A program made the translations under genes and the position numbers. This document shows positions 2,211 to 59,000 of a DNA stretch of 64,000 bases, piece by piece. The stretch lies in contig OZ244879.1 in NCBI GenBank assembly GCA_965221295.1, positions 623,252 to 687,251 on the forward strand, read 5' to 3'. Source of the stretch: Dehalococcoidia bacterium (lineage in GTDB: Bacteria > Chloroflexota > Dehalococcoidia > Lucifugimonadales > UBA3495). Below the pieces are notes generated by a model. The model was given only the letters and a program-made list of their open reading frames with translations. It was not told the origin of the DNA and made no database searches. The stretch's first letter is position 1, and each line of letters starts with the position of its first letter.

Positions 2211-3353
2211 ATGATTTTCCCCGACAGTTCCGCATCATGGGAACCGGCTGCCGGTTTTGAGGAGAGCGACGGCATGATCCCAGAGATCGGTCGTGGAGTT
2301 CCGCTCATCAAGGTGATGGGTGTCGGCGGCGGAGGATCCAACGCGGTCAGCCGGATGTACAAGGACAAGCTGCCCGTGGTGGAGTATTACGCCCTGAATA
2401 CCGACGCCCAACACCTGGCCCGGTGCGACGTGCACTACCGGATTGCGTTGGGTCGGAACTTGACTCGCGGCCTGGGCGCCGGCGCGCAACCGGAATTGGG
2501 CCGGCAGGCTGCCGAGGAATCGCGGTCTGAAATTGAGCAGGCCGTAAGCGGCGCCGACATGGTGTTCGTCGCCGTGGGCATGGGCGGCGGAACCGGCACC
2601 GGCGCGGCCCCGGTGGTGGCCCAGATCGCCAAGGAAAGCGGCGCCCTCACCATCGCCGTGGTGAGCCGTCCCTTCGGCTTCGAAGCCCAGACCCGCCGGC
2701 GCAACGCCGAGGACGGCTTGGAAAAACTGCAAGACCACGTGGACACCATGATCGTGATTCCCAACGACCGTCTGCTGGCCCTGAACGAGGAACAGGCCGA
2801 CTCCTATTCCTGGGAGGACGCCCTGAAGTTGGCCGATTCGGTGCTGCATCAGGGCATCAGCGCCATTGCCGAGGTGGTGACCGTTCCGGGCGAAATCAAC
2901 GTTGACTTCGCCGACGTCAAGACGATCCTCACCGGAGCCGGACAAGCCTGGCTGTCCATAGGGCGAGGCCGGGGAACCGACCGGGCGCGAGACGCCGCCC
3001 GCCAGTGCACCGCAAGCCCGATGCTGGACATGTCCCTGGAAGGCGCGCGTCGGATCCTGTTCATGCTGACGGGCGGCAATAACCTGTCGCTGCAGGAAGT
3101 GCAGGAAGCGGCGGCGGTAATCGAAGAACTGGCGGATCCCAACGCCAACATCATCTTCGGAACCAACAAGGACGCCCGATTGGACGACGAGGTGAAGATG
3201 ACCATGGTGGCGGCGGAATTCCCGGTGGCGGCGCCAGCTGCCGAGGACGATATCGCCAAATTGCTGGACGAGATGGAAATCCCCGAACGTAGCGACTTCG
3301 AACTGCCCACGTTCCTACAGCATCGCCAGAACCGCAGAGGCTTTTACCGCTAG
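2211..3353 (+). CDS. ftsZ: Cell division GTPase FtsZ
   Basis: Contains the tubulin signature GGGTGTGAAPV and the N-terminal VMGVGGGGSNAV. An AGGAGG sequence lies about 10 nt upstream of the ATG at 2211. Confidence 0.95.
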   Translation: MIFPDSSASWEPAAGFEESDGMIPEIGRGVPLIKVMGVGGGGSNAVSRMYKDKLPVVEYYALNTDAQHLARCDVHYRIALGRNLTRGLGAGAQPELGRQAAEESRSEIEQAVSGADMVFVAVGMGGGTGTGAAPVVAQIAKESGALTIAVVSRPFGFEAQTRRRNAEDGLEKLQDHVDTMIVIPNDRLLALNEEQADSYSWEDALKLADSVLHQGISAIAEVVTVPGEINVDFADVKTILTGAGQAWLSIGRGRGTDRARDAARQCTASPMLDMSLEGARRILFMLTGGNNLSLQEVQEAAAVIEELADPNANIIFGTNKDARLDDEVKMTMVAAEFPVAAPAAEDDIAKLLDEMEIPERSDFELPTFLQHRQNRRGFYR

Positions 3354-5115: not shown

Positions 5116-8100
5116 GTGGAGGCGAGGGCAACGAGCATGACGCAGCAGGTGAGCGGCGACCAAAAATCAAGCGACCCGAAATCATCGGCGCAGCGACGCA
5201 TTCGAGACGCGATGACCGCGGCGGGCATCGCACAGTCCTATGGCGAACGCACCGGCGAACTGACCGACAACGCCCGTGTGGTGCTGCAACGGCGATACCT
5301 AGCCAAGGACCGGGAAGGCAAGGTGTTGGAAGATCCGGAAGGGATGTTCCGCAGGGTCGCGCGCAACCTCTCCCAGTCGGACTTGGAATACGGCGCCACC
5401 GAAGCCGAACGCCAGCGCGTCGAGGATGAGTTCTACCGGGTCATGCGTCGGCTGGAGTTTCTGCCCAATTCGCCCACCCTGATGAACGCGGGACGGGAAC
5501 TGCAACAGCTCTCGGCCTGTTTCGTTCTGCCCGTTGAGGACTCTCTGGACTCGATTTTCACCAAGGTGAAGCAGACTGCGCTGATTCACAAGAGCGGCGG
5601 CGGAACCGGCTTCGCCTTTTCTCGCCTGCGCCCAGAGGGAGACGTGGTTGGTTCAACCGGAGGCGTGGCCTCCGGACCGGTGAGTTTCATCAACGCCTTC
5701 GACGCCGCCACCGACGTGGTGAAACAGGGCGGGACGCGCCGGGGCGCCAACATGGGCATCCTACACGTCACCCACCCCGACATCATGGACTTCATCACGT
5801 CCAAAGAGGACGGACAGCGCCTCAGCAACTTCAACATCTCGGTGGCGGTAACCGAGGATTTCATGCGTCGGGTGGAAAACGACCAGGCTTACGACCTGGT
5901 GAATCCTCGCACAGGACAAATCACCGGACAGCTCAACGCCCGCGAGGTCTTCGAACGCATGACTGAGCTGGCCTGGCGCACCGGGGATCCAGGCATCGTC
6001 TTCCTGGACCGTATCAACCGGGACAACCCGAACCCTCAGTTGGGGGACATCGAAAGCACGAATCCGTGCGTGTCCGCCGACACCTGGGTGCAGACTGCGG
6101 ATGGCCCGCGGCAGGTGGTGGAGCTGGTCGGCGTTCCCTGCGCCGTGATGGTTGATGGCGAGGCCCACGACACTGGCCGGCAGGGATTCTTCCCAACGGG
6201 CGTCAAACCCGTTTTGCGGCTGGCCACCGAAGAAGGCTACAACCTACGGCTAACGGAGGACCACCCAACGCTTCGCGTGAACGCCGACGCTGGCGCCGGT
6301 TCCGGGCGCGCGTGGGTCCCCGCCCGCGACCTGCGACCCGGCGACGAGATTCAGCTCCATGACCATCGCAACATTGCCAGCTGGCCCGGCCCGTATAGCG
6401 AGCGCGAAGGATACCGCATCGGCGCGCTGATGGGGAACGACGCCCTGTCCGAAAATCGGGCGCCGCTCGGTTTCGGGACGCGCCAAGGGTTCCCCAGCGG
6501 AACCGACCAGACGCACGGAGCCGCTCCCGTCATGGAACGAACCGCGGCGGCCGTCCAGACTCGCCATCGCCGCAACGCCCTCGATGGCTCCATGGACGCG
6601 CCGGGAGTATCCCAACGCCAGCCCGGCTTGGGCGCAGCGTCGCTACTGGCGCTGGAAGTGGGCATGGCCCCAGGACGCAAGACCATTACGCCGGCAATGG
6701 AGCGCGCCTCCAGCGACTTCTATCGCGGTTTCCTGCGCGCGCTCTTCGACGCTGACGGAACGGTCAACGACGCGCCGGCGGATGGCCTCAGCGTTCGCTT
6801 GTCCTGGAGCGATGCGCCCTTCGATGCGTCCTTCCTTGAAGCGGCGCAACGGATGTTGCTGCGGCTGGGCATAGCGTCGCGGCTGCGCAACCCAAGCCAC
6901 CCGTCTGGCGCTGGGACATTGTCGGATGGCCAGCGGAACCCTGTCCCTGGCCCGATGGGAACCGAACCCGTAGGAACCAAACCCATGGGAACCAAACCCA
7001 TGGAAACCAAACCCGAATTGGCTATTGCCGGCGAGAATATCGCCCGCTTCGCCGCGACCGTCGGATTTTCCGACGTGGACAAGCAGACGCAGCTCGTTGG
7101 ATCGCTCGCCGCCCACCGGCCCGGTTTCAGCGAGGAACGCTTCGTTGCGCGGGTACAGTCGCTGCAACCGGACGGCTGCGAGGCGGTCTTCGACGTTCAG
7201 GTGCCCGGCGTCAACGCTTTTGACGCCAACGGCCTCTACGCCCACAACTGCGGGGAGCAACCCCTGCTGCCCTATGAATCCTGCAACCTGGGTTCGCTGA
7301 ACCTGGCGCGGATGGTGCGGTACGACGGGGTCGGCGCCGAAATCGATTGGGAACGAATGTCGGAGGTTATCGAGACGGCGGTTCACATGCTGGACTGCGT
7401 CATCGATATGAACGACTACCCAATCGATGAGATCGCCGACATGAGCCGTCGGACGCGGCGCATAGGTCTGGGTGTGATGGGCTGGTCGGACCTGCTGATT
7501 CAGATGGGCGTTCGCTACGACAGCGAAGCGGCGCTGGAACTGGCCGAAGAGGTGATGAAATTCATCCAGGAGGAGACTTACCGCGCCTCTGAGCGACTAT
7601 CCGAAGCGCGCGGCCCCTTCCCGGAATGGGAACGAAGCGTGTACAGCCGCGGCCCGAACCAGCGCCACATGCGGAACTCGGCCCCGGTCACCATCGCGCC
7701 CACGGGCACCATCAGCATCATCGCCGGAGCGTCCAGCGGAATCGAGCCGCTGTTCGCGTTGTCCTACGTGCGCAACGTGATGGACAACACCAGGTTGGTG
7801 GAGGGCAACAACTACTTCGAGGCGGTGGCCCGCAACGAAGGGTTCTACTCTGAAGAGTTGATGGAGCAGCTGGCCGCCGTGGGGTCATTGGAACATCTGG
7901 ACGTGCCCGCCTGGGTGAAGGAAGTCTTCAGGGTCTCGCACGACATCGATCCCCGTTGGCACGTCAAGATGCAGGGAGCCTTCCAGAAATATACCGACAA
8001 CGCGGTGTCCAAGACGATTAATTTCCCACACGACGCGACGGTGGCCGACGTGGCCGAGGCGTATCGCTCGGCGTATGCGCTGGGCTGCAAGGGAATCACG

Positions 8101-8909: not shown

Positions 8910-9324
8910 TCTAAACTCAGCGCCGCTTGGCGATTGCTGGCAGCCGCAGGCGATACAATCGCCGGAACCCGGCGGCTACCAGATAATCGGCGGTGAGGGT
9001 TTTCGCGTCAGACTGGCGTCGCGACGTTCGAGAAGGCCCGATTGGACTGACGACCGATCACATCGCCCGGCGAACCAGCAGAGCGACGCTGGCCATACGA
9101 CCGAACTTCCACCAACGCGATTCCAGGCAATGCGATTTTAGGCAACGCGAATTTCAGGCAACGCGCTAATCGTAGGCTTTGGCCGATTCGCCAGCAACCT
9201 ACGGGGCCAACCAGAGTTCCAGCGTATGGCATAATACCGGCTACAATCCGCATACCGGCTACCGTCCGCGTTAGCAATACGTCAAGAGCGCGCAGGCGGC
9301 GGGTCAAAGCAAACGTCGCCGTCC

Positions 9325-23370: not shown

Positions 23371-23581
23371 GTTTATCGCCCAATCCCTAACTTCCAATCC
23401 CGAGGCCGTACGCGTCACCGAATCCGACGAGGGCGACCAAATCGTGATACGGCTGGAAGTAGCGCCCGAAGACAAGGGCAAGGTTATCGGACGTCAGGGC
23501 CGCGTGGCCCAGGCGATGCGGGTATTGCTACGGGTCGCCGCCGTCAAGGACGGCACGCGGGCAGTCTTGGAGATTGTCTAA
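23354..23581 (+). CDS. KH-domain RNA-binding protein (YlqC/UPF0109)
   Basis: Contains GKVIGRQGRVAQAMR and occupies the conserved position between rpsP and rimM. Confidence 0.85.
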   Translation: MKELIEFIAQSLTSNPEAVRVTESDEGDQIVIRLEVAPEDKGKVIGRQGRVAQAMRVLLRVAAVKDGTRAVLEIV

Positions 23582-24167
23582 CCCGCGGCAATACCGACGG
23601 AACCGCCGGGGCGCTGCCGGCGTTCAGTCCGCGAAGCAAGCGCCGCCCGGCCCGGATGATCCCGAACCGCCGGCTGGCATGGCCCTGGTGGGGCGAGTCT
23701 TGCGCCCACACGGCCTCGATGGCTCCCTGAGGATCCGGCCGCTGTCCGACAACCCGAAGCGGTTCCTCGTTGGCGAATCCCTGACCGTCGCCGGCAGGTC
23801 GTGGACTGTCGCCAGCTTCCGGGCAACGCCCGGCGACCAGGCGCTGTTGGGCTTGGAAGGTTTGAGCGACCCTGCCTCAGCGCGCGCCCTGACCGGCGAA
23901 TGGCTGTACGCCGCCATCGACCCCGCCGACGCCCTGCCTCCCGGGGAGTACTACCACTATCAATTGATCGGACTTTCCGTCGCCACCGATGAGGGAGAAG
24001 CCCTGGGAACCATCAGGGAGATTCTAACCACCGGCAGCAACGACGTTTACGTAGTCGACTCCGGTTCCGGGTCCGACATCCTGCTACCCGCGATTTCCCA
24101 GGTGATCAAACACGTCGATCTGGAGTCGGGCGCAATGCTGGTCCATCTGATCGACGGTTTGAGATAG
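23574..24167 (+). CDS. rimM: 16S rRNA processing protein RimM (start may be the ATG at 23679)
   Basis: Contains VGRVLRPHGLDGSLRI plus a C-terminal PRC barrel, in the conserved gene order. Confidence 0.85.
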   Translation: MSNPRQYRRNRRGAAGVQSAKQAPPGPDDPEPPAGMALVGRVLRPHGLDGSLRIRPLSDNPKRFLVGESLTVAGRSWTVASFRATPGDQALLGLEGLSDPASARALTGEWLYAAIDPADALPPGEYYHYQLIGLSVATDEGEALGTIREILTTGSNDVYVVDSGSGSDILLPAISQVIKHVDLESGAMLVHLIDGLR

Positions 24168-24204
24168 CAGTTGGTCAGGCGCAGGATGCGGCGCGCCCTC
24201 CCTT

Positions 24205-25625
24205 TTCTGTCATTGCGAACCTTCCTCTACTGTCATTGCGAGCGAAGCGCGGCAATCTAGTGGGTCGCAACCAACGGCCGCTGGGCTCCGCCACCCTACG
24301 GTCGTTCGCCCAGGAATCGAGATTGCCGCGGCCTTCGGCCTCGCAATGACGGTTGCTATGGTCGGTCATTGCGGGCCTTCCTCTACTGTCATTGCGAGCG
24401 AAGCGCGGCAATCTAGTGGGTCGCAACCAACGGCCGCTCGGCTCCACCATCCTACGGTCGTTCGCCCTGGAATCGAGATTGCCGCGTCGCTAACGCTCCT
24501 CGCAATGACAATTGCTATGGTCTGTCAATGCGGGCCTTCCTCTACTGTCATTGCGAGCGAAGCGCGGCAATCTCGTTGACCGCAACCAACGGCCGCTCGG
24601 CTCCGCCATCTCACGGTCGTTCGCCCAGGCATCGAGATTGCCGCGTCGCTACCGCTCCTCGCAATGACAGTTGCTATGGTCGGTCATTGCGAGCCTTCCT
24701 TTACTGTCATTGCGAGCGAAGCGCGGCAATCTAGTGGGTCGCAACCAACGGCCGCTCGGCTCCGCCACCATACGGTCGTTCGCCCAGGCATCGAGATTGC
24801 CGCGTCGCTACCGCTCCTCGCAATGACAGTTGCTATGGTCGGTCATTGCGAGCCTTCCTTTATTGTCATTGCGAGCGAAGCGCGGCAATCTCGTTGGCCG
24901 CAACCAACGGCCGCTCGGCTCCGCCACCCGACGGTCGTTCGCCCAGGCATCGAGATTGCCGCGTCGCTACCGCTCCTCGCAATGACAGTTGCTATGGTCG
25001 GTCATTGCGAGCCTTCCTTTATTGTCATTGCGAGCGAAGCGCGGCAATCTCGTTGGCCGCAACCAACGGCCGCTCGGCTCCGCCACCCGACGGTCGTTCG
25101 CCCAGGCATCGAGATTGCCGCGTCGCTACCGCTCCTCGCAATGACAGTTGCTATGGTCGGTCATTGCGAGCCTTCCTCTACTGTCATTGCGAGCGAAGCG
25201 CGGCAATCTCGTTGGCCGCAACCAACGGCCGCTCGGCTCCGCCATCTTACGGTCGTTCGCCCAAGCATAGAGATTGCCACGTCGCTAACGCTCCTCGCAA
25301 TGACAATTGCTATGGTCGGTCATTGCGAGCCTTCCTTTACTGTCGTTGCGAGCGAAGCGCGGCAATCTCGTTGGCCGCAACCAACGGCCGCTCGGCTCCG
25401 CCATCTTACGGTCGTTCGCCCAGGCATCGAGATTGCCGCGTCGCTAACGCTCCTCGCAATGACAGTTGGGGGGCGCTCTTCGCAATGACAGTTGAGGGGC
25501 GCTCCTCGCAATGACCAGAACCGAGGGGCCGAATGAGCGACCGCAGGAAGGCGCCTGGCGGCCTTCGTCCTCGCAATGACAGTTGCTATGGTCTGTCATT
25601 GCGAGCGGAGCGCGGACAGTCGCCG
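24205..25625. repeat. Tandem array of a 159-bp palindrome-containing unit (8 full units plus degenerate fragments)
   Basis: Units start at 24231, 24387, 24546, 24705, 24864, 25023, 25182 and 25341. The first spacing is 156 nt and the rest are exactly 159 nt. Each unit has nested inverted repeats tgtcattgcgag...cgcggcaatctcg / cgagattgccgcg...ctcgcaatgaca around a conserved core of about 57 nt. Confidence 0.92.
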
Positions 25626-25632
25626 GCCGCGG

Positions 25633-26112
25633 TCAGTCGCCGGCCGCCGCCAGGTGGCGTTCGGCGTGCGCGCGTTCGTGGTCCGTCTCGTCGGCGAACT
25701 CGTGGTCTTCGCAAGCCACCCAGCGCGAGCCATCGGCGAACCATTCCTTCTTCCAGATGGGAACGATGGTCTTGATGCGGTTCACCGCTTCGTGGCACGC
25801 CTCGAAAGCCTGCAACCGGTGGGGTGAGGCCACCGCCACCACCAGGCTGATCTGCCCAACGTCCACGCGGCCGGTGCGGTGGGCAATGGCGATGTCCTCG
25901 ATGCCGTAATCGGCCCGCAGGCTGTCCCGAACCTCGTGCAGCTTCTTTACGGCCATCACGTCATAGGCTTCATATTCCAGCCGCGTGACTTCCTTGCCGC
26001 CATAGTTGTCGCGAGTGGTTCCCAGGAAGGTGACCACGGCCCCATTGCCATCCTGGCGAACTGAATCGGTGATTTCCGTCGGGTCCAATGGTTCTTCGGT
26101 TAGGATGATCAT
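25633..26112 (-). CDS. moaE: Molybdopterin synthase catalytic subunit MoaE
   Basis: Contains GAVVTFLGTTRD...LEYEAYDVMA...IAIAHRTGRVDVG. Confidence 0.85.
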   Translation of the reverse strand: MIILTEEPLDPTEITDSVRQDGNGAVVTFLGTTRDNYGGKEVTRLEYEAYDVMAVKKLHEVRDSLRADYGIEDIAIAHRTGRVDVGQISLVVAVASPHRLQAFEACHEAVNRIKTIVPIWKKEWFADGSRWVACEDHEFADETDHERAHAERHLAAAGD

Positions 26113-26756: not shown

Positions 26757-27037
26757 ACGTTGTTTGCTGTGATGGGGAGTAGTAAGCGGGGTACGGTCGC
26801 GTAGAGAGCCGACGGCTGGTGAAAGTCGGTGGACGGAACCGCAGAACTCGCCCCGGAGCGTCCGGCCTGAGAGTCCGCCTGATTCAGGCGACGATTGTAG
26901 GGCGGGCGGGTCGGCCCCGATATAGGCTGTGCACAAAGAGTTTCGAGTCTGGCCCGAACTTGAGGGCCGGCGCGGAAAAGAAGGGTGGTACCGCGGGAAT
27001 TCAAACCCGTCCCTTCGGGGGGGCGGGTCATTTTTAT
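26757..27037 (+). promoter_or_regulatory. T-box leader (tRNA-sensing riboswitch), probable Leu (CUC) specifier, with terminator
   Basis: Contains an AGAGAG bulge, a GGTGAAAG distal loop and GAA-CUC-G at 26844-26850. The conserved T-box sequence aagGGTGGTACCGCGg lies at 26981-26996. The terminator acccgtccc ttcg ggggggcgggt is followed by cattttt. Confidence 0.8.
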
Positions 27038-27072
27038 GCTCCGCCGATGCAGGATCCAGGCAACACCAGGAG

Positions 27073-28788
27073 ATGCCAACGATGGAAATGACCGGGGCCG
27101 AGATAATTTGCGAAAGCCTCCTGCGCGAAGGCGTGGACACCATATTCGGGTTGCCCGGCGGCGCTGTACTGCCTTTTTACGGCGCGCTTTCCGGATACCC
27201 CCAGTTGCGCCACATCCTGGTACGGCACGAACAGGCAGCCGCTATGGCGGCCGACGGTTACGCCCGCGCCACCGGCAAGGTCGGCGTGTGTTCGGCGACC
27301 TCCGGACCCGGCGCTACCAACCTGGTCACTGGGTTGGCCTCAGCCCAAATGGACTCGGTGCCCATCGTCTGCATCACCGGACAGGTGCCCCGTCCCGCCA
27401 TCGGCCGCGACGCGTTCCAAGAAACGGACATCACCGGCATCACCCTGCCCGTCACCAAGCACAACTACCTGGTGATGGACGTGCGCGACATCGCCCCGGT
27501 GATCAAAGAAGCGTTCTACATCGCCCGAACCGGACGGCCCGGACCGGTTCTGATCGATGTACCGAAGGACATCTTGGCCGGCGAAAAGACCGAATTCGAA
27601 TGGCCCGAGTCAATCGAGTTGCCGGGCTACACCCCGCCAGGCGAAGCCGAACCCGCGCAGGTGGCCGCCGCCGCCCGTTTGATCAACGAAGCCGAACGCC
27701 CTGTGATCCTGGCTGGACACGGTGTGCTGATTTCCCGGGCCTGGGATGAACTGCGGCAGCTGGCAGAGAAGGCGCAGATCCCGGTCATCACCACTCTGCT
27801 CGGCATCAGCGCTCTGCCCACTGACCACATCCTCAACATGGGTATGCCGGGGATGCACGGCATGGCCTACGCCAGCTTGGCCATAGACCGCTCCGATCTG
27901 GTGATCGCCCTGGGCGCGCGGTTCGACGACCGGGTAACCGGCCGCCTCTCCGACTTCGCGCCCCAGGCCAAGATAATCCACTTCGACGTCGACCCCAGCG
28001 AGTTCAACAAGAACGTGGTGGCGGACGCGCCGGTGCTGGGCGACCTGAAAGCCAGCCTGCGCGCCCTGATCGGCCAGGTTCAATCAAACGTGCACCTGGA
28101 CTGGATCAGGGAGACCGACCGGATGCGGGCCGAGCATCCTTCCCTATTCATACGCAAATCCGATGAACTGCTGCCCCAGCAGGTGTTGAAGGAACTGTCG
28201 GACTTCACGGGCGGCGAAAGCATTATCGTCACCGGAGTTGGCCAGCATCAGATGTGGGCGGCTCAGCACTACGGATACAAAGAACCCAATTCCCTGATCA
28301 CGTCGGGCGGCAGCGGAGCCATGGGGTTCGAGGTGCCGGCCGCGTTGGGAGCCAAGGTGGGCCGGCCCGACAAGACCGTGTGGTCCATCGCCGGCGACGG
28401 CGGGTTCCAGATGACCCTTTGCGACCTGGCCACCGCGGTGGAGAACAACATCGACGTGAAGTACGCCATCCTGAACAATGGGTCGTTGGGCATGGTGCGA
28501 CAGTGGCAGGACTTCTTCTACGAAAAAGACTTTTTCGCCACCATCTACAGCGGCAACCCGGACTTCGTAAAACTTGCCGAAGCCTACGGCATCCGGGGCA
28601 TCCGGGTAACGAAGCAGGAGGAAGTCGCCGGGGCGATTCAGGAAGCCATGGAGACGCCCGGCCCGGTGGTGGTGGATTTCGTCGTGAAAGAAGACGAGTT
28701 CGTGTACCCGATGATCCCGGCCGGCGAATCGGTGCACGAAATGCTGGAAGAGCCCGAAGTTGAGGGGGTCGCCATTGAAACCGCATAA
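27073..28788 (+). CDS. ilvB: Acetolactate synthase large subunit (start at 27073 or 27082)
   Basis: Starts MTGAEIICESLLREGVDTIFGLPGGA and carries the TPP-binding motif GDGGFQM...NNGSLGMV. Confidence 0.92.
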   Translation: MPTMEMTGAEIICESLLREGVDTIFGLPGGAVLPFYGALSGYPQLRHILVRHEQAAAMAADGYARATGKVGVCSATSGPGATNLVTGLASAQMDSVPIVCITGQVPRPAIGRDAFQETDITGITLPVTKHNYLVMDVRDIAPVIKEAFYIARTGRPGPVLIDVPKDILAGEKTEFEWPESIELPGYTPPGEAEPAQVAAAARLINEAERPVILAGHGVLISRAWDELRQLAEKAQIPVITTLLGISALPTDHILNMGMPGMHGMAYASLAIDRSDLVIALGARFDDRVTGRLSDFAPQAKIIHFDVDPSEFNKNVVADAPVLGDLKASLRALIGQVQSNVHLDWIRETDRMRAEHPSLFIRKSDELLPQQVLKELSDFTGGESIIVTGVGQHQMWAAQHYGYKEPNSLITSGGSGAMGFEVPAALGAKVGRPDKTVWSIAGDGGFQMTLCDLATAVENNIDVKYAILNNGSLGMVRQWQDFFYEKDFFATIYSGNPDFVKLAEAYGIRGIRVTKQEEVAGAIQEAMETPGPVVVDFVVKEDEFVYPMIPAGESVHEMLEEPEVEGVAIETA

Positions 28789-32345: not shown

Positions 32346-32579
32346 GCTTGGCTCCGGGGACTAGGCTTGGCTCCGGGGACTAGGCTGAACTCAAGCCAAC
32401 CACCCTGATTGGGGAGCGCATTGCGTAGGGGCGGGTTCCACAACCCGCCCCTAATTTTCGGTCAACGCCAACGACCGTGGCGAAGATGGTCAGGAACCCG
32501 CCCTCGCGTCGCTGGCGGGCTTTGCCAATACGGGATCTGCCAATGCGAGCTCTGCAAACACAGGCTCTGCCGGTAAACC

Positions 32580-33593: not shown

Positions 33594-34593
33594 AATTTGG
33601 AGCCCTCGAACTGCTGGGCTGGCGAGTCGATCTCCCAGTTAAGCCACGGGGCGCCCCGAAAACCAAGGTGCAGCGCCCACAAGGCCATTGGGCGTCCGCA
33701 AAGCTATTGGGCGCCCGCAAGGCTATTGGGCGACCATCGCGCCAGCCTCATGCGGACTGGGAAAACAAGCAAAAATGGTGGAGACGGGGGAGAGTCGCAC
33801 TCCCCGTCCAGAAACTCCCCTGATCGGATCTGCTACAAGCTTGTTCGGCGCTTTAGTCTCGCTGCCGCCGACTCTCGCCGACGGGATTCGGCAGCGGCCA
33901 GCCGATGAAATCTGTGGCCCCGGTTATCGGCGTCGCTGGGGTAGCATCCCGGAATGATTGGTCGTCCGCTTCCCGGCTTCCGGGCCTACCGGTGGCAGAC
34001 GTAGCCGCGACTAGGCGGCTAGAGCGAATTCACGTTCGCCAGTTAGTTGTTCGCCACCGTTTTTAGCGAGGGCAGCGGCAGCCTCGGCCTGCAATCCGTC
34101 AGAGACCGCTCCTGTCGAACCTACGCGTCCCCAACTATCGATCCCATCAACCAAAGCGGCTCATGGGAACTTCCATATGATACCACCTCCGTGGCCAGGT
34201 AGGCAAAAGAGCCGTGCGCGTCCGCGCCACCGTTTTCCAACACCCGCGATCCCGGGGCGCGTTTCCCCCGCAGCCATCGCGAGCGGCGCCGCCTCGTTGC
34301 GATTGCGACGAGCGTTACCCACGGAGCCATCGCAGGGAGACGCCAGCGCGGGGGCATCCGTTGGCCGCAGGAACGACGCAAAGAGCGAACGGCCGTTATC
34401 GATGGCCAACGATCTTGATGACGAACGATCTAAATGACCACCTAGGACGCTGGCCACCCAAGACGCTGCGCTGCGTCGCCCGCATGGGAGACGCAAGGCG
34501 TGATCCCCCCGCCAAGACGGCCCAAAGCTGCCTGTGCCGACAGCCGACTGGGACGAGCGCTGGCAGGTTCAAAAAATCAGGGCGAATTCGGTG

Positions 34594-34709: not shown

Positions 34710-36222
<1,513 letters not shown>

Positions 36223-36552: not shown

Positions 36553-37662
36553 ATGCGTATTACCGACCTAGGCGAATTCGGCCTGATCGATCTGGTCCAA
36601 CAATGGACCAAATCCGCCTGCCCGGACCCGGATCGTCTGAACCCGGATTGCCCGAACCCGGATTGCCCGAACCCGGATTGCCCGAACCCGGATTGCCCGA
36701 ACCCGGATTGCCCGAACCCTGATCGAGGGACGATTGCCACCCCTACGTATCGCCTCGTGACGCCCAACGGGGACGACGCGGCCGCCGTGGCCTTTGCAGG
36801 CCCCGTCGTCGAACTTTACACCACCGACACCATGGTCGATGGCATTCACTTCACCGCGTCCACCACACCCTGGCGCGACCTGGGGTGGAAGGCCTTAGCC
36901 TCCAACATCAGCGACATCGCCGCGATGGGTGGCGACCCGTCGGTGGCCCTGATCACCTTGGGTCTCCCACCAGAGACCCTCGTGGACGACGTGCGCGCCC
37001 TGTATCAGGGCATGACCGACATCTGTCGCCAGTTCGGCGCGTGTATCGTCGGTGGCGATATGGTGCGTTCCCCAGTCGCCTTCGTCACCGTTGCTCTCAC
37101 CGGCATCGCTGCAGGGACCCCAATGGTCCGTACCGCAGCGCAGCTGGGGCATCTCATTGGAGTTACCGGGCCCGTGGGAGGGTCGGCTGGCGGTCTGCGC
37201 CAACTCCTGGAGGGAACCGCCGCTTCTGCCGCGGAACCGTCGCCCTTGGTGACGCAACACCGGCGCCCCCATCCGCACGTGTCGGCGGGGCGAACGCTGG
37301 TGGCCGCCGGCGTCGCCTCGGCAATGGACGTGAGCGATGGCCTGGCCGACGACCTGGGCAAGCTTTGTTACGCCAGCGGGGTCGCCGCCACCATCTTCGC
37401 CCACCAGACGCCGGTATTGCCGTCGCTGCGCGCCGCGTTCCCAGACGACTGGCTGGCCCTGGCGCTGTACGGTGGCGAGGATTACGTCATCCTCTTCACG
37501 GCTCCGCAGGATATAATGGACGTCGCCATGGCTGCGCTCCCAGAAGGCGCTGCGGTGGTGGGCAAAATCACCGAAGGAGAGCCGGGCGCCGTGACGATAC
37601 TGGACGAATCGGGCGTCCAGATACCCGCAGCCGGCGGAGGCTGGGATCATTTCGCCGACTGA
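36553..37662 (+). CDS. thiL: Thiamine-monophosphate kinase with an N-terminal pentapeptide-repeat insertion
   Basis: Contains GEFGLIDL...GDDAAAV...TTDTMVDGIHF and an AIR-synthase-like fold pattern. Confidence 0.85.
   Translation: MRITDLGEFGLIDLVQQWTKSACPDPDRLNPDCPNPDCPNPDCPNPDCPNPDCPNPDRGTIATPTYRLVTPNGDDAAAVAFAGPVVELYTTDTMVDGIHFTASTTPWRDLGWKALASNISDIAAMGGDPSVALITLGLPPETLVDDVRALYQGMTDICRQFGACIVGGDMVRSPVAFVTVALTGIAAGTPMVRTAAQLGHLIGVTGPVGGSAGGLRQLLEGTAASAAEPSPLVTQHRRPHPHVSAGRTLVAAGVASAMDVSDGLADDLGKLCYASGVAATIFAHQTPVLPSLRAAFPDDWLALALYGGEDYVILFTAPQDIMDVAMAALPEGAAVVGKITEGEPGAVTILDESGVQIPAAGGGWDHFAD
36621..36725 (+). repeat. Seven in-frame 15-nt tandem units (core cccgaacccggattg, PDCPN) inside thiL
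   Basis: Read directly. Translates to PDPDRLNPDCPNPDCPNPDCPNPDCPNPDCPNPDR. Confidence 0.9.
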
Positions 37663-54303: not shown

Positions 54304-54319
54304 CAATGAGAGCGCTACC

Positions 54320-54415
54320 TACTGTTCCTACGCCGGCATTACCCGAGTCAGGTACAGACGGTCGGCGACGAATTTGGTCGCCCTCTCAGCCTGGTTTCCC
54401 CAAGCTCCCGCCAGA
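54320..54415 (-). promoter_or_regulatory. TPP (THI-box) riboswitch
   Basis: The minus strand reads ...ggggaaaccaggCTGAGAgggcgacc...gaccgtctgtACCTGActcgGGTAATGCCGGCGTAGGAAc. This matches the conserved CUGAGA and ACCUGA...GGAUAAUGCCAGCG...GGGA cores. Confidence 0.8.
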
Positions 54416-54660
54416 AATCGCGTCAGGCATTCGATTGTCCCTTGAATGTAGCGCTTTGAGCTGCTCAAGTCAACGTGAACCGATTGTTTCGCGACTGGGC
54501 CGTCCCACCGTACCGTTGCCCTGGAGTCAAGCCGTTGGAACCGCGCGGGACCGCCCCAAGGTCTCGCCATCGCGAAGGGGGATGCGACGCGGCGACGTGA
54601 CGCAACGCTAACCATCGCTAGGAAGGAAGGGAACGGCCGTTGGTCATGGTCGATGAGTTT

Positions 54661-54750
54661 GCCGCGCTGCGCTCGCAATGACAGAAAAAATTGGCTCGCA
54701 ATGACAGAAAAAAAATTGGCTCGCTATGACAGGAAAAATTGGCTCGCGGT
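54661..54750. repeat. Three to four tandem units of about 23 nt carrying the gctcgcaatgaca arm of the 159-bp element
   Basis: gctcgcaatgacagaaaaaattg, gctcgcaatgacagaaaaaaaattg, gctcgctatgacaggaaaaattg and gctcgcggtg. Confidence 0.8.
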
Positions 54751-54888
54751 GTTTGGGGCGACAGGTTGGCATTGTTTGGGGTAGCGCACTTGCGCCGCCT
54801 GGCGGGCAGGTGGCAAGGCGTTATAACTGGACGATGGGGCCATTGACAAGGAATTGATGTCGGCGCACTATGTTGCGGCGTTTGCTGG

Positions 54889-58116: not shown

Positions 58117-58575
58117 ATGATCGATCGTGAAAGTGATGAAACCCCGCTGCCGTGGCCAAAAAGCGAATCTAGAGAGTCGATTTGGAGCGTTCCGGCCGGA
58201 TGGGGCAGACCCTGTTTCCTTGCGTTTTGCGTAATGACCATTGGAATCACGACGTTTTTGACTTGGCACGACCTGCGGCTTTCGTCCATTTTCAGCAGTT
58301 CTGATGTTGCGGCGGCGACGATCCGGAATATTTTCCCCAGCGGAGGGGCCTCCGCCGTAATGATCATCATTCTTGCCGAGGCGGTGCAGTACATCATGTC
58401 AACATTGGAATACCTCAGGAGCAAGTGGGTCAAACCCATAATCGAACAGCATCGCGCCGACGGGCGGGCGGAAATGCACAAGTTGATTCGCCAGTGGGTG
58501 GAGCGTCGCGACGCCGCTCTGCAAGCGGGAGAGGCTTTCGACGAGCCGTTCCCTTCTCCAGACGATCTTCGATAG
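58117..58575 (+). CDS. Hypothetical small membrane protein
   Basis: A 152-aa ORF with two hydrophobic segments and a charged helical tail. Its 3' two-thirds are duplicated immediately downstream. Confidence 0.55.
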   Translation: MIDRESDETPLPWPKSESRESIWSVPAGWGRPCFLAFCVMTIGITTFLTWHDLRLSSIFSSSDVAAATIRNIFPSGGASAVMIIILAEAVQYIMSTLEYLRSKWVKPIIEQHRADGRAEMHKLIRQWVERRDAALQAGEAFDEPFPSPDDLR

Positions 58576-58960
58576 CGCGCGCTGATCGGTTTCAGCTTCG
58601 CATTCTGCTCGCCACTACGTCATCAGTTCTGATGTTGCGGCGGCGACGATCCGGAATATTTTCCCAGCGGAGGGGCCTCCGCCGTAATGATCATCATTCT
58701 TGCCGAGGCGATTCAGTACATCATGGCAACGTTGGATTATCTCAGGAGCAAGTGGGTCAAACCCATAATCGAACAGCATCGCGCCGAAGGCCGCGCCGAC
58801 GGGCGGGCGGAAATGCACAAGTTGATCCGCCAGTGGGTGGAGCGTCGGGACGCCGCCCTGCAAGCAGGTAAGGATTTCGATGAACCGTTCCCTTCGCCAG
58901 ACGATCTTCGATAGCGCGCGCTGATCGGTTTCAGCGTCGCGTTCTGCTCGCCACTACGCC
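58296..58960 (+). repeat. Direct tandem duplication (two copies, period 328 bp)
   Basis: 58296-58623 is repeated at 58624 to about 58960 with a few substitutions, a 12-nt insertion (gaaggccgcgcc) and a 1-nt deletion (ttttcccc to ttttccc). Each copy includes the stop codon and about 45 nt of 3' flank. Confidence 0.88.
58687..58914 (+). pseudogene. Duplicated 3' fragment of the upstream membrane-protein gene
   Basis: It is the same reading frame as copy 1 but is cut off from any N-terminal part by the 1-nt deletion. The only start available is an internal Met (MIIILAEAIQY...). Confidence 0.5.
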
Positions 58961-59000
58961 AACAGCATTTGAAATGGTCGACCCCCAGTAGGCCCGCCTC

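Follow-up and report, generated by a model that had tools for sequence, protein, structure and literature searches.

The question raised by this locus is what an extra 1.4 kb of cruciform-prone DNA is doing between two housekeeping genes of a Dehalococcoidia bacterium. The window that we analyzed is a 64,000-nt stretch (positions 623,252 to 687,251) of contig OZ244879.1, a 3.37-Mb contig of a Chloroflexota metagenome-assembled genome. In it, a tandem array of palindromic units occupies the 1.4-kb gap between the convergent genes rimM (+ strand) and moaE (− strand). The initial annotation of this DNA recognized that the array fills the gap and held that no function could be assigned to it. We differ on the latter point, as homology allows one to be assigned: the arms of the units belong to the hairpin repeats that flank the genes of Ssn-type GIY-YIG nucleases that act on single-stranded DNA (ssDNA). 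We estimate a probability of about 80% that the eight units are head-to-head doublets of a hairpin repeat from the Ssn-related motif (SRM) superfamily, which has also been described as CGTC/TGTC-tagged repetitive extragenic palindromes (REPs), and that together they form a non-coding cluster comparable to bacterial interspersed mosaic elements (BIMEs) and REP doublets forming hairpins (REPINs). Among the candidates offered initially, an amplified element resembling a REP or a miniature inverted-repeat transposable element (MITE) had named the correct class. Arrays of this kind, i.e., gene-less clusters of Ssn-type hairpin repeats, are known since 2025 (Chenal et al., PMC11893778).

Organization of the array

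Tandem Repeats Finder delineates the array at 24209-25468 with a period of 159 nt, 7.9 copies, 94% matches and a score of 2149. The unit-opening box TGTCATTGCGAG is found at 24231, 24387, 24546, 24705, 24864, 25023, 25182 and, with one mismatch, 25341. The eight in-register units thus span 24231-25465 and are spaced by 156 nt once and by 159 nt six times, in exact agreement with the first reading of the sequence. Allowing at most one mismatch, the 11-nt arm occurs 30 times in the window against an expectation of 1.5, and none of 100 shuffles reached 30 copies. The same array is present in an independent ENA assembly of the same population (L121), which is 99.67% identical over 20.5 kb and differs from the window by one homopolymer within the array and by 3.9 differences per kb outside it; the array is confirmed as real.

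Unit 1 (24231-24386) is 156 nt long, is the most diverged of all and carries GCCTTCGGC as the middle of its right arm. It is followed by units 2 (24387-24545), 3 (24546-24704), 4 (24705-24863), 5 (24864-25022), 6 (25023-25181) and 7 (25182-25340), each of 159 nt, and by unit 8 (25341-25465), which retains only the palindromic part and has the mismatched left box GTCGTTGCGAG. Degenerate arm fragments flank the eight units on both sides. To the left, a leading module on the + strand (24205-24230), identical to that before every unit, consists of the half-site GTCATTGCGAA at 24209-24219 and an 11-nt linker. To the right, the degenerate tail noted earlier, reaching to about 25625, resolves into 2.6 copies of the right-hand box CGCTCCTCGCAATGACAGTTGRGGGG iterated with a 26-nt period on the − strand (25448-25515), and a truncated ninth unit (25570-25625) comprising a right box at 25570-25581, linker 1, TGTCATTGCGAG and a degenerate inner box. 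Identity between units ranges from 84 to 100%: the units at the edges are the most diverged and neighboring central units the most alike, with units 5 and 6, already singled out for their near-identity, being the same over their first 125 nt. In units 2-7 the outer boxes are invariant and half of the variable columns fall in a 57-nt core.

Each arm of the unit is one complete copy of a hairpin element, which we term E, with the structure (T/C)GTC-ATTGC-GAG-[variable hairpin]-CG-WR-GCAAT-CTC. Here (T/C)GTC is a tag that stays unpaired, ATTGC:GCAAT forms a basal stem of 5 bp, and GAG / CG-WR makes up an internal loop, beyond which lies a distal hairpin whose sequence is free; a C is placed right after the stem. 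The initial annotation had described an outer and an inner inverted repeat in each unit; these sequences are indeed present, but rather than being nested features they are the two boxes of a single E in each arm. The unit is a head-to-head doublet of E around a 57-nt core hairpin, with the order E reversed, core, E forward, 13-nt linker, half-site (tag and left half of the stem) and 11-nt linker. In unit 5, which we use as the reference, the left arm (24864-24893) bears its tag on the + strand and is the short form TGTC-ATTGC-GAG-CGAAG-CGCG-GCAAT-CTCG. The core (24894-24950) has its own hairpin, AACGGCCG...CGGTCGTT, as reported at the outset. The right arm (24951-24987), with its tag on the − strand, is the long form and reads CGAGATTGC-CGCG-TCGCTACCGCTC-CTCGCAATGACA on the + strand. 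It is followed by linker 1, GTTGCTATGGTCG (24988-25000), by the half-site GTCATTGCGAG on the + strand (25001-25011), which lacks a partner box, and by linker 2, CCTTCCTTTAT (25012-25022).

The half-site can pair with the preceding right arm, and the two mutually exclusive hairpins that this extra arm copy had been thought to allow are both predicted by folding. In the minimum-free-energy structure of the unit the right arm pairs with the half-site in the linker, while in the centroid structure the two outer arms pair with each other. Relative to shuffled sequences the fold has z = -5.2 on the + strand and z = -5.1 on the opposite strand; both strands fold equally well, as any DNA palindrome is expected to do.

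The arm motif had also been noticed at a second site in the window, and we confirmed it there at 54655-54752. This site (54630-54752, − strand) holds a core remnant, AACGGCCGTTGGTC, one right-type arm with one mismatch, GAGTTTGC...CTCGCAATGACA (54655-54683), two more CTCGCAATGAC-type boxes (54695-54705 and 54720-54730) and a degenerate copy, with a spacing of 23-25 nt. A thiamine pyrophosphate (TPP) riboswitch at 54308-54421 (− strand) lies about 230 nt away in the same intergenic region.

Element E across bacteria and viruses

A search of viral contigs with the pattern GAGATTGC-N6-30-CTCGCAATGAC recovered E in at least 120 contigs. Its general layout is box 1, GAGATTGC; four bases; a middle of 3-26 nt; and box 2, CTCGCAATGAC(A). 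At the four positions that follow box 1, 155 of 171 matches have TTCG, CACG or CGCG, though the pattern left these positions free. The middle is a hairpin of free sequence: the 181 distinct middles of at least 9 nt have a mean minimum free energy of -3.62 kcal/mol against -1.17 kcal/mol in shuffles, 49% of them (15% of shuffles) reach -3 kcal/mol or lower, and they use 45 different stem words. Altogether we counted 483 copies of E across 240 loci, in which neighboring pairs are head-to-head, with their inner boxes facing each other, in 102 cases and in the opposite arrangement in 44; about 90 of the 102 head-to-head pairs enclose a core of 2-80 nt. Where box 2 is directly iterated within 60 nt, the spacing is mostly 23-30 nt. 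Iterated half-sites are seen not only in the window but also in other loci of its genome (L122-L124), in a Planktothrix locus (L337) and in viral contigs.

A more stringent pattern, GAGATTGC-NNCG-N3-30-CTCGCAATGAC, specifies 21 bases; run on the GTDB species genomes, it matched at least 120 genome stretches from about 20 phyla, against roughly 8 matches expected by chance in 596 Gb by our own estimate, which assumes uniform base composition. The matches listed come from Chloroflexota, Planctomycetota, Pseudomonadota, Bacillota, Bacteroidota, Nitrospirota, Omnitrophota, Patescibacteria (Berkel-, Falkow- and Roizmanbacteria), Armatimonadota, Gemmatimonadota, Myxococcota, Campylobacterota, Atribacterota and others. 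E also occurs on plasmid or megaplasmid records of Novosphingobium, Methylobacterium, Methylosinus and Nostocales. BLAST of the entire 159-nt unit against plasmids returned one partial, chance-like match. Full-text literature yielded the arm sequences only as primers, and they are absent from the supplementary files of PMC3733652 and PMC11893778.

In the IMG/VR contigs (L001-L120) the arm often abuts gene ends: either box 1 comes directly after a stop codon, or a ribosome-binding site lies 5-15 nt from it on the opposite strand. Several related contigs of this set have the arm ahead of a gene whose product starts M..KEGLP.EAFAIVGDPE. A crude six-frame open reading frame (ORF) analysis gave no usable picture of how arms are oriented with respect to genes, being too noisy in G+C-rich DNA.

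A GIY-YIG nuclease gene between paired arms

We then asked what inverted pairs of E separated by 200-3500 nt enclose in the 240 loci. Three such pairs, from three phyla, enclose an ORF of about 96 aa with a GIY-YIG domain (Pfam PF01541): one is from Planctomycetota (L163), one from Oscillospiraceae (L161) and one from Falkowbacteria (L197), where the gene is disrupted. In the 240 loci, the inverted arm pairs contained no ORF resembling a transposase. In L197 the ssn-type gene (2514-3019) is split by an insertion of about 130 nt that carries its own long inverted repeat and looks like a mobile element nested in a mobile element. The same gene is found in an Omnitrophota locus (L207) between GTCATTCTGAG...GAATCTC and GAGATCC...CTCAGGATGAC. 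Here the basal stem ATTGC:GCAAT is replaced by ATTCT:AGAAT or ATCCT:AGGAT, and this covariation between subfamilies lends support to the stem.

For the reciprocal test we used 80 metagenome loci selected by protein similarity alone (551 of 600 candidate stretches were confirmed), restricting the count to the 66 in which the gene has 150 nt or more of sequence on either side. An upstream tag box lies within 200 nt in 55 of these, an inverted box lies downstream in 58, and both are present in 52 (79%). The tag box typically begins 40-60 nt before the gene start and the inverted box 16-65 nt past the stop. Boxes number 8.44 per kb in the 200 nt next to the gene and 0.36 per kb at distances above 400 nt, a 23-fold difference, and the gene itself contains none.

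The E-flanked proteins align end-to-end with the SsnA homologue of Neisseria gonorrhoeae, with 42% identity over 91 aligned residues, and hhalign recovers this relationship with a probability of 99.9% (E-value = 9e-32). Their only solved relative is the UPF0213 protein 1zg2. The family comprises at least 8,000 clusters at 90% identity with E-values of 1e-10 or better, and among the matches listed most homologues lie on contigs under 5 kb. On plasmid and megaplasmid records, tblastn found the protein in Azospirillum lipoferum 4B, Sinorhizobium meliloti, Novosphingobium aromaticivorans, Sphingobium, N. gonorrhoeae and Planktothrix. In all five of the loci that we read, the gene is flanked by local hairpins with CGTC, CCTC or TGTC tags: CGTCATTCCCGCGCAGGCGGGAATC in N. 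gonorrhoeae; CGTCATCCCCGCGAAGGCGGGGATCC in A. lipoferum, with the gene between sufB and sufC; CCTCATCCCTGTG...CACAGGGATCC in S. meliloti; CGTCGCCCCGTG...CACGGGGC in N. aromaticivorans; and, in Planktothrix, TGTCATTCTGAG doublets with 23-nt iterated half-sites like those in the window. The A. lipoferum locus (L335; plasmid AZO_p3, 255112-256190) has hairpin doublets on both sides of the ssn-type gene and is situated inside an Fe-S cluster assembly operon. Seen against these loci, the units of the window are a gene-less version, in which the 57-nt core stands in place of the gene.

History of the locus and sister arrays

The array lies between rimM (23574-24167, + strand; Pfam RimM and PRC_RimM), the last gene of an rpsP-khpA-rimM run, and moaE (25633-26112, − strand; Pfam MoaE, E-value = 1e-37), whose exact protein is on record. 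The true start of rimM is probably the ATG near 23679; in L121 the gene caller gives a product of 162 aa. Exactly where the array ends on the right, a 17-nt sequence, CGCGGACAGTCGCCGGC, is duplicated in tandem (2.2 copies, 25611-25647); the duplication overlaps the moaE stop codon and has ACA in its first copy where the second has the complement of the stop, TCA. Near 24173, at the left border, there is a 13-mer similar to this duplication (GGTCAGGCGCAGG versus GGTCAGTCGCCGG, 11 of 13 positions matching). These could be a junction footprint or a chance resemblance in G+C-rich DNA.

In four relatives (L127 from GCA_034423595.1, L130, L131 and L132), whose MoaE belongs to the same 90%-identity protein cluster, rimM and moaE are likewise convergent and 14-58 nt apart, with no array in between. 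About 44 kb of the relatives' DNA contains only one doublet, in L132. Given this short gap in the relatives, the array is a lineage-specific insertion that was probably amplified locally. The absence of trmD-rplS downstream of rimM, to which the initial annotation had drawn attention, proved irrelevant, as the relatives share the convergent arrangement. In L127 the 56-nt gap contains a perfect palindrome, GTAGGTGCGAGG-CAT-GCCTCGCACCTAC (5480-5537), which resembles the arm of the window (TGCGAG...CTCGCA) but begins with GTAG; it may be a different or an ancestral hairpin at the same site.

The genome from which the window comes has at least five further arrays: at L122 5864-6640 (period 216) in a co-directional gap, at L123 6030-6660 (periods 159 and 186) and 1966-2330 (period 134), and at L124 6064-6732 (period 154) and 500-1000. 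Sister arrays in L123 and L124 sit in divergent gaps, such that arrays are found in convergent, divergent and co-directional settings. Each is internally homogeneous with its own linkers, and a related core motif, CCAACGGCCG...CGGCCGTTGG, is present in the sister arrays. One of them shows the same box spacing in two samples, L124 (ERZ26695579) and L125 (ERZ25067264). In the window, too, the linkers are repeated together with the arms. The simplest account would be that one doublet inserted into a rimM-moaE gap of at most about 60 nt, after which the repeated arms allowed unequal recombination or replication slippage to amplify the whole 159-bp unit with its linkers.

A gene for an AAA_15/AAA_21 ATPase recurs in this clade (L127 2670-4692, L132 1692-3697, L131 1798-3042 and L123 9678-11014). 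A gene with a weak HNH match comes next in three of the four loci, and the pair resembles a two-gene defence system. It is found upstream of thiS-moaE in three relatives and elsewhere (L123) in the genome of the window, where the thiS-moaE locus has a 226-aa ORF of unknown family in place of the ATPase pair.

A proposed mechanism and the case for it

The mechanism that we envisage draws on the characterized Neisseria system. SsnA is a 94-aa GIY-YIG protein (cd10448) that binds the NTS hairpin only as ssDNA, leaving duplex DNA, RNA and the reverse strand unbound. Cleavage is specific for ssDNA and for the strand and occurs a few nucleotides upstream of the hairpin; it is governed by the 3 nt upstream of the palindrome, while the C after the palindrome is the most important base for binding (PMC11893778). 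In Neisseria, the NTS-ssnA system reduces transformation by NTS-bearing DNA, and Chenal et al. likened NTS-ssnA-NTS to an insertion sequence and compared it with REP, BIME and the REP-associated tyrosine transposase (RAYT) (PMC11893778). By homology with the Neisseria and Wolbachia enzymes, the arms of the window would be read only where DNA becomes single-stranded, for example in replication, repair or DNA uptake. The tag-bearing strand would fold, and Ssn would bind the hairpin and cut a few nucleotides 5' of the tag, with RNA and duplex DNA presumably not being substrates. Our analysis shows the anatomy of the array and its non-coding nature, the family-wide association of the arms with the GIY-YIG gene, the homology to SsnA, the lack of an array in the relatives and the sister arrays of this genome; the action of a cognate Ssn on the arms in this organism, the way in which doublets spread and any advantage to the host are inferred.

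Several points weigh against this reading. That a cognate Ssn acts on this arm class is a prediction from homology. We found no GIY-YIG ORF in the window and L121-L132 (about 125 kb in all), and in two protein searches the 3.37-Mb contig was not in the best 120 of at least 7,788 matches. The published SRM pattern, HGTCWYN(0-2)YYVSBRHN(0-5)WNVSBRGN(0-2)RNCYNB, has no match on the + strand of the window and one unrelated match on the − strand. No target-site duplication and no strain-level pair of empty and filled sites was seen, and covariation of the doublet within the genome is uninformative, as nearly all of the 30 pairs are invariant.

A more far-reaching proposal, which we consider rather unlikely as a whole, is that TGTCATTGCGAG...GCAATCTC is a distinct pan-bacterial class of Ssn substrate, the doublets are REPIN-like replicators, the arrays and half-sites are footprints of Ssn cleavage and rejoining, and Ssn is a GIY-YIG transposase. 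If true, Ssn would be the transposase of a new class of GIY-YIG mobile elements, with a role beyond 'restriction' of transforming DNA, and the six or more arrays of this genome would make it well suited for testing the idea. The array is a ready substrate for asking if Ssn mobilizes these repeats or merely cuts them.

Alternative explanations

The foremost alternative, improbable in our view, is that the units are structured RNAs or a transcriptional module, whose hairpins terminate, stabilize or regulate the convergent rimM and moaE transcripts. It would be in keeping with the position of the array between convergent genes, with a + strand fold far better than that of shuffled sequences, and with the TTC or TTCG loops of many distal hairpins in the family (on the strand leading from box 1 to box 2). 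REP and BIME repeats also stabilize the 3' ends of mRNAs. However, the opposite strand folds just as well, Rfam gave no match at the gathering threshold and only chance-level ones of 15-17 bits at E-values up to 10, and the region 23900-25900 contains no terminator-like site, with 1.9 expected in shuffles, and no promoter-like site. Moreover, sister arrays occupy divergent (L123 and L124) and co-directional (L122) gaps, the relatives make do with their short gap, and the characterized partner protein lacks RNA binding (PMC11893778). Accordingly, neither the structured-RNA array nor the termination module of the initial annotation was upheld. The array may nevertheless have an incidental effect on read-through transcription.

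The prospects are slimmer still for a MITE or REP of another system, i.e., a MITE mobilized by a DDE transposase, or a GTAG-type REP or REPIN served by a RAYT. The arms are inverted repeats beginning TGT...ACA, and the doublet architecture equals that of the REPIN (PMC3116915). Within the array, sub-terminal 12-mers are iterated at 22-27-nt spacing. Such iteration is reminiscent of multi-site transposon ends. Yet a conserved GTAG tag is lacking, with the four bases before the left arm being CTAC, TTAC or TTAT. The gene between the arms is of the GIY-YIG type in the 66 protein-selected loci, whereas no transposase-like ORF was encountered within the inverted arm pairs; nor is a target-site duplication evident at the array borders. 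Di Nocera et al. likewise found no transposase adjoining the CGTC-type REPs (PMC3733652).

There is a very slight chance that the array is an artefact of a low-coverage long-read metagenome assembly. Coverage in the ENA assembly, as stated in its contig names, is about 3.5-3.9x, and homopolymer differences exist between the two assemblies. Against this, both assemblies have the same array length with a single 1-nt difference inside, the spacing of a sister array is identical in the L124 and L125 samples, and the units differ among themselves in an ordered fashion that is not expected from collapse or expansion.

A genuine repeat-protein gene can be practically dismissed: two plus-strand ORFs (274 and 222 aa) stay open across the array, the gene caller gave a 279-aa product and there are weak Pfam matches to Fer2_2 and DUF3493, but the former scores 24.0 against a curated cut-off of 30.3, the latter barely passes in total (30.8 against 27.1) with neither having a passing single stretch, the only homologues among 5.8 billion proteins are ORFs over sister arrays of the same genome, the variable columns are distributed 8:5:7 and 7:8:5 over codon positions 1:2:3 with no third-position excess, and what is conserved are palindromic boxes rather than a reading frame. 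The codon-level purifying selection that had been named as a potential refutation of a non-coding array is thus not apparent, and the long ORFs are by-products of the 3 x 53 period, as was surmised from the start.

Among other candidates, integron attC sites were rejected for want of a GTTRRRY core, Tn7/Mu-like multi-site transposon ends because there is no transposase and solo arms are common, and sigma-70 promoters in the ATGACA boxes because 23900-25900 has no promoter-like sites.

For our preferred reading, a non-coding cluster of hairpin doublets, the practical consequences go beyond this locus. Such arrays create false ORFs, like the products of 270-279 aa seen here, and much of the 'hypothetical ORF' noise in metagenomes may come from this family. 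They probably also break assemblies; most of the nuclease homologues listed lie, as mentioned, on short contigs.

Other features of the window

A T-box leader at 26760-27017 (97 bits, gathering score 93) lies upstream of a three-domain acetolactate-synthase-like TPP enzyme. The longest ORF of the latter (26929-28788) overlaps the leader, and its real start is probably further downstream. A tmRNA gene (33776-34132, − strand) and a complete 16S rRNA gene (34710-36222, + strand) are encoded on opposite strands about 580 nt apart; in the 64-kb window no tRNA genes were found and no 23S match was reported. A 339-bp tandem repeat at 58292-58965 (2.0 copies, 90% identity, score 1086) is not related to the hairpin family. 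Further tandem repeats, of 3.5-7.9 copies and a 15-nt period, are seen at 1861-1979, 2088-2145, 6955-7014, 9113-9165, 32516-32571 and 36619-36723, the last just downstream of the 16S gene; they may be pentapeptide-type coding repeats.

Comparison with known systems

Of the systems that the array recalls, CRISPR arrays share its regularly spaced palindromic repeats. However, the cores of the window are conserved between units that are 84-100% identical, and the arms alternate in orientation, which rules out a CRISPR array, as was evident from the first reading; no cas genes were found among the flanking genes checked. MITEs, such as the Neisseria Correia and the cyanobacterial Nezha elements, are comparable in being small, gene-less, multi-copy and bounded by terminal inverted repeats, and in being derived from, or parallel to, a gene-bearing form. 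The family of the window differs in that no DDE transposase partner or target-site duplication was seen, solo arms are common and the central hairpin is hypervariable.

A closer parallel is provided by the REPs, BIMEs and REPINs of Enterobacteria and Pseudomonas with their RAYT. Both show palindromic singlets, inverted doublets and tandem mosaic clusters, a small nuclease gene bracketed by the repeats, and recognition at the level of an ssDNA hairpin. In contrast, the enzyme of that system is of the HUH/Y1 type and its tag is GTAG, as opposed to GIY-YIG and (T/C)GTC in the arm family of the window, and REP sequences are lineage-specific whereas the arm sequence is almost the same across phyla.

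The CGTC-tagged REPs have a CGTC, TGTC or CCTC tag and an A-T start of the stem, occur mostly as head-to-head dimers in five phyla, and include the Neisseria dRS3 and Rickettsia RPE-4/6 elements; they 'apparently lack a dedicated transposase', none having been found next to them (PMC3733652). The arms of the window agree with these in their TGTC tag and AT stem start, in the predominance of head-to-head dimers and in their presence in several phyla. Further, GIY-YIG homologues are found in A. lipoferum, S. meliloti, N. aromaticivorans and Neisseria, all listed in PMC3733652, with Sphingobium being a listed genus. The CGTC families have 8-9-bp stems, 4-5-nt loops and a CCA tail, and Chloroflexi are not among the phyla listed (PMC3733652). 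The arms of the window depart from this stem, loop and tail definition in that their stem is split, their middle is long and variable, and their tail is CTC. Our finding connects these REPs, described in 2013 without a dedicated enzyme, with a GIY-YIG partner.

The system closest to the arms is that of SRM and ssnA. The motif model for SRM derives from 29 genomes belonging to 4 phyla. An SRM lies near 71% of ssnA homologues, 42% are flanked by one on either side, and an ssn gene is present in 81% of genomes with more than 200 SRM (PMC11893778). The shared features are a hairpin with an unpaired (H)GTC tag 5' of a stem starting with AT, a C after the stem, many copies in a mostly intergenic and clustered distribution, and the flanking of a single-domain GIY-YIG gene of about 95 aa by inverted repeats. 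In the window, TGTC-ATTGC... is found in every left arm and, on the minus strand, in every right arm, the cytosine is present as ...GCAAT-C-TC in all units and in generic E, and inverted flanking of an ssn gene by this arm type is met with in other genomes (L161, L163 and L197, and the 52 of 66 loci). The published pattern matches the positive controls, the Neisseria NTS and Azospirillum, and fails not only in the window but also on the gene-flanking arms of Planktothrix, S. meliloti and N. aromaticivorans; therefore, the case for membership in SRM is made by the tag, by the C that follows the stem and by the association with the gene, and not by the published motif. We accordingly file the arms as a divergent class of Ssn-related hairpin repeat, with a split stem and a free distal hairpin, rather than as textbook SRM, which have a continuous 8-9-bp stem and a 3-5-nt loop in place of the 5-bp basal stem, internal loop and distal hairpin seen here.

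The main text of the SRM paper does not contain the words tandem, Chloroflexi or Cyanobacteria (PMC11893778). What the window appears to add to the literature is, first, an arm class missed by the published motif, whose boxes are nearly invariant across some 20 phyla and which brackets the gene in 79% of loci; compared to the 42% obtained with the published motif, this suggests that the family is larger than reported. Second, it adds arrays in perfect register, here over 1.4 kb, with a conserved 57-nt core hairpin and iterated half-sites, by which this class is likewise set apart from SRM.

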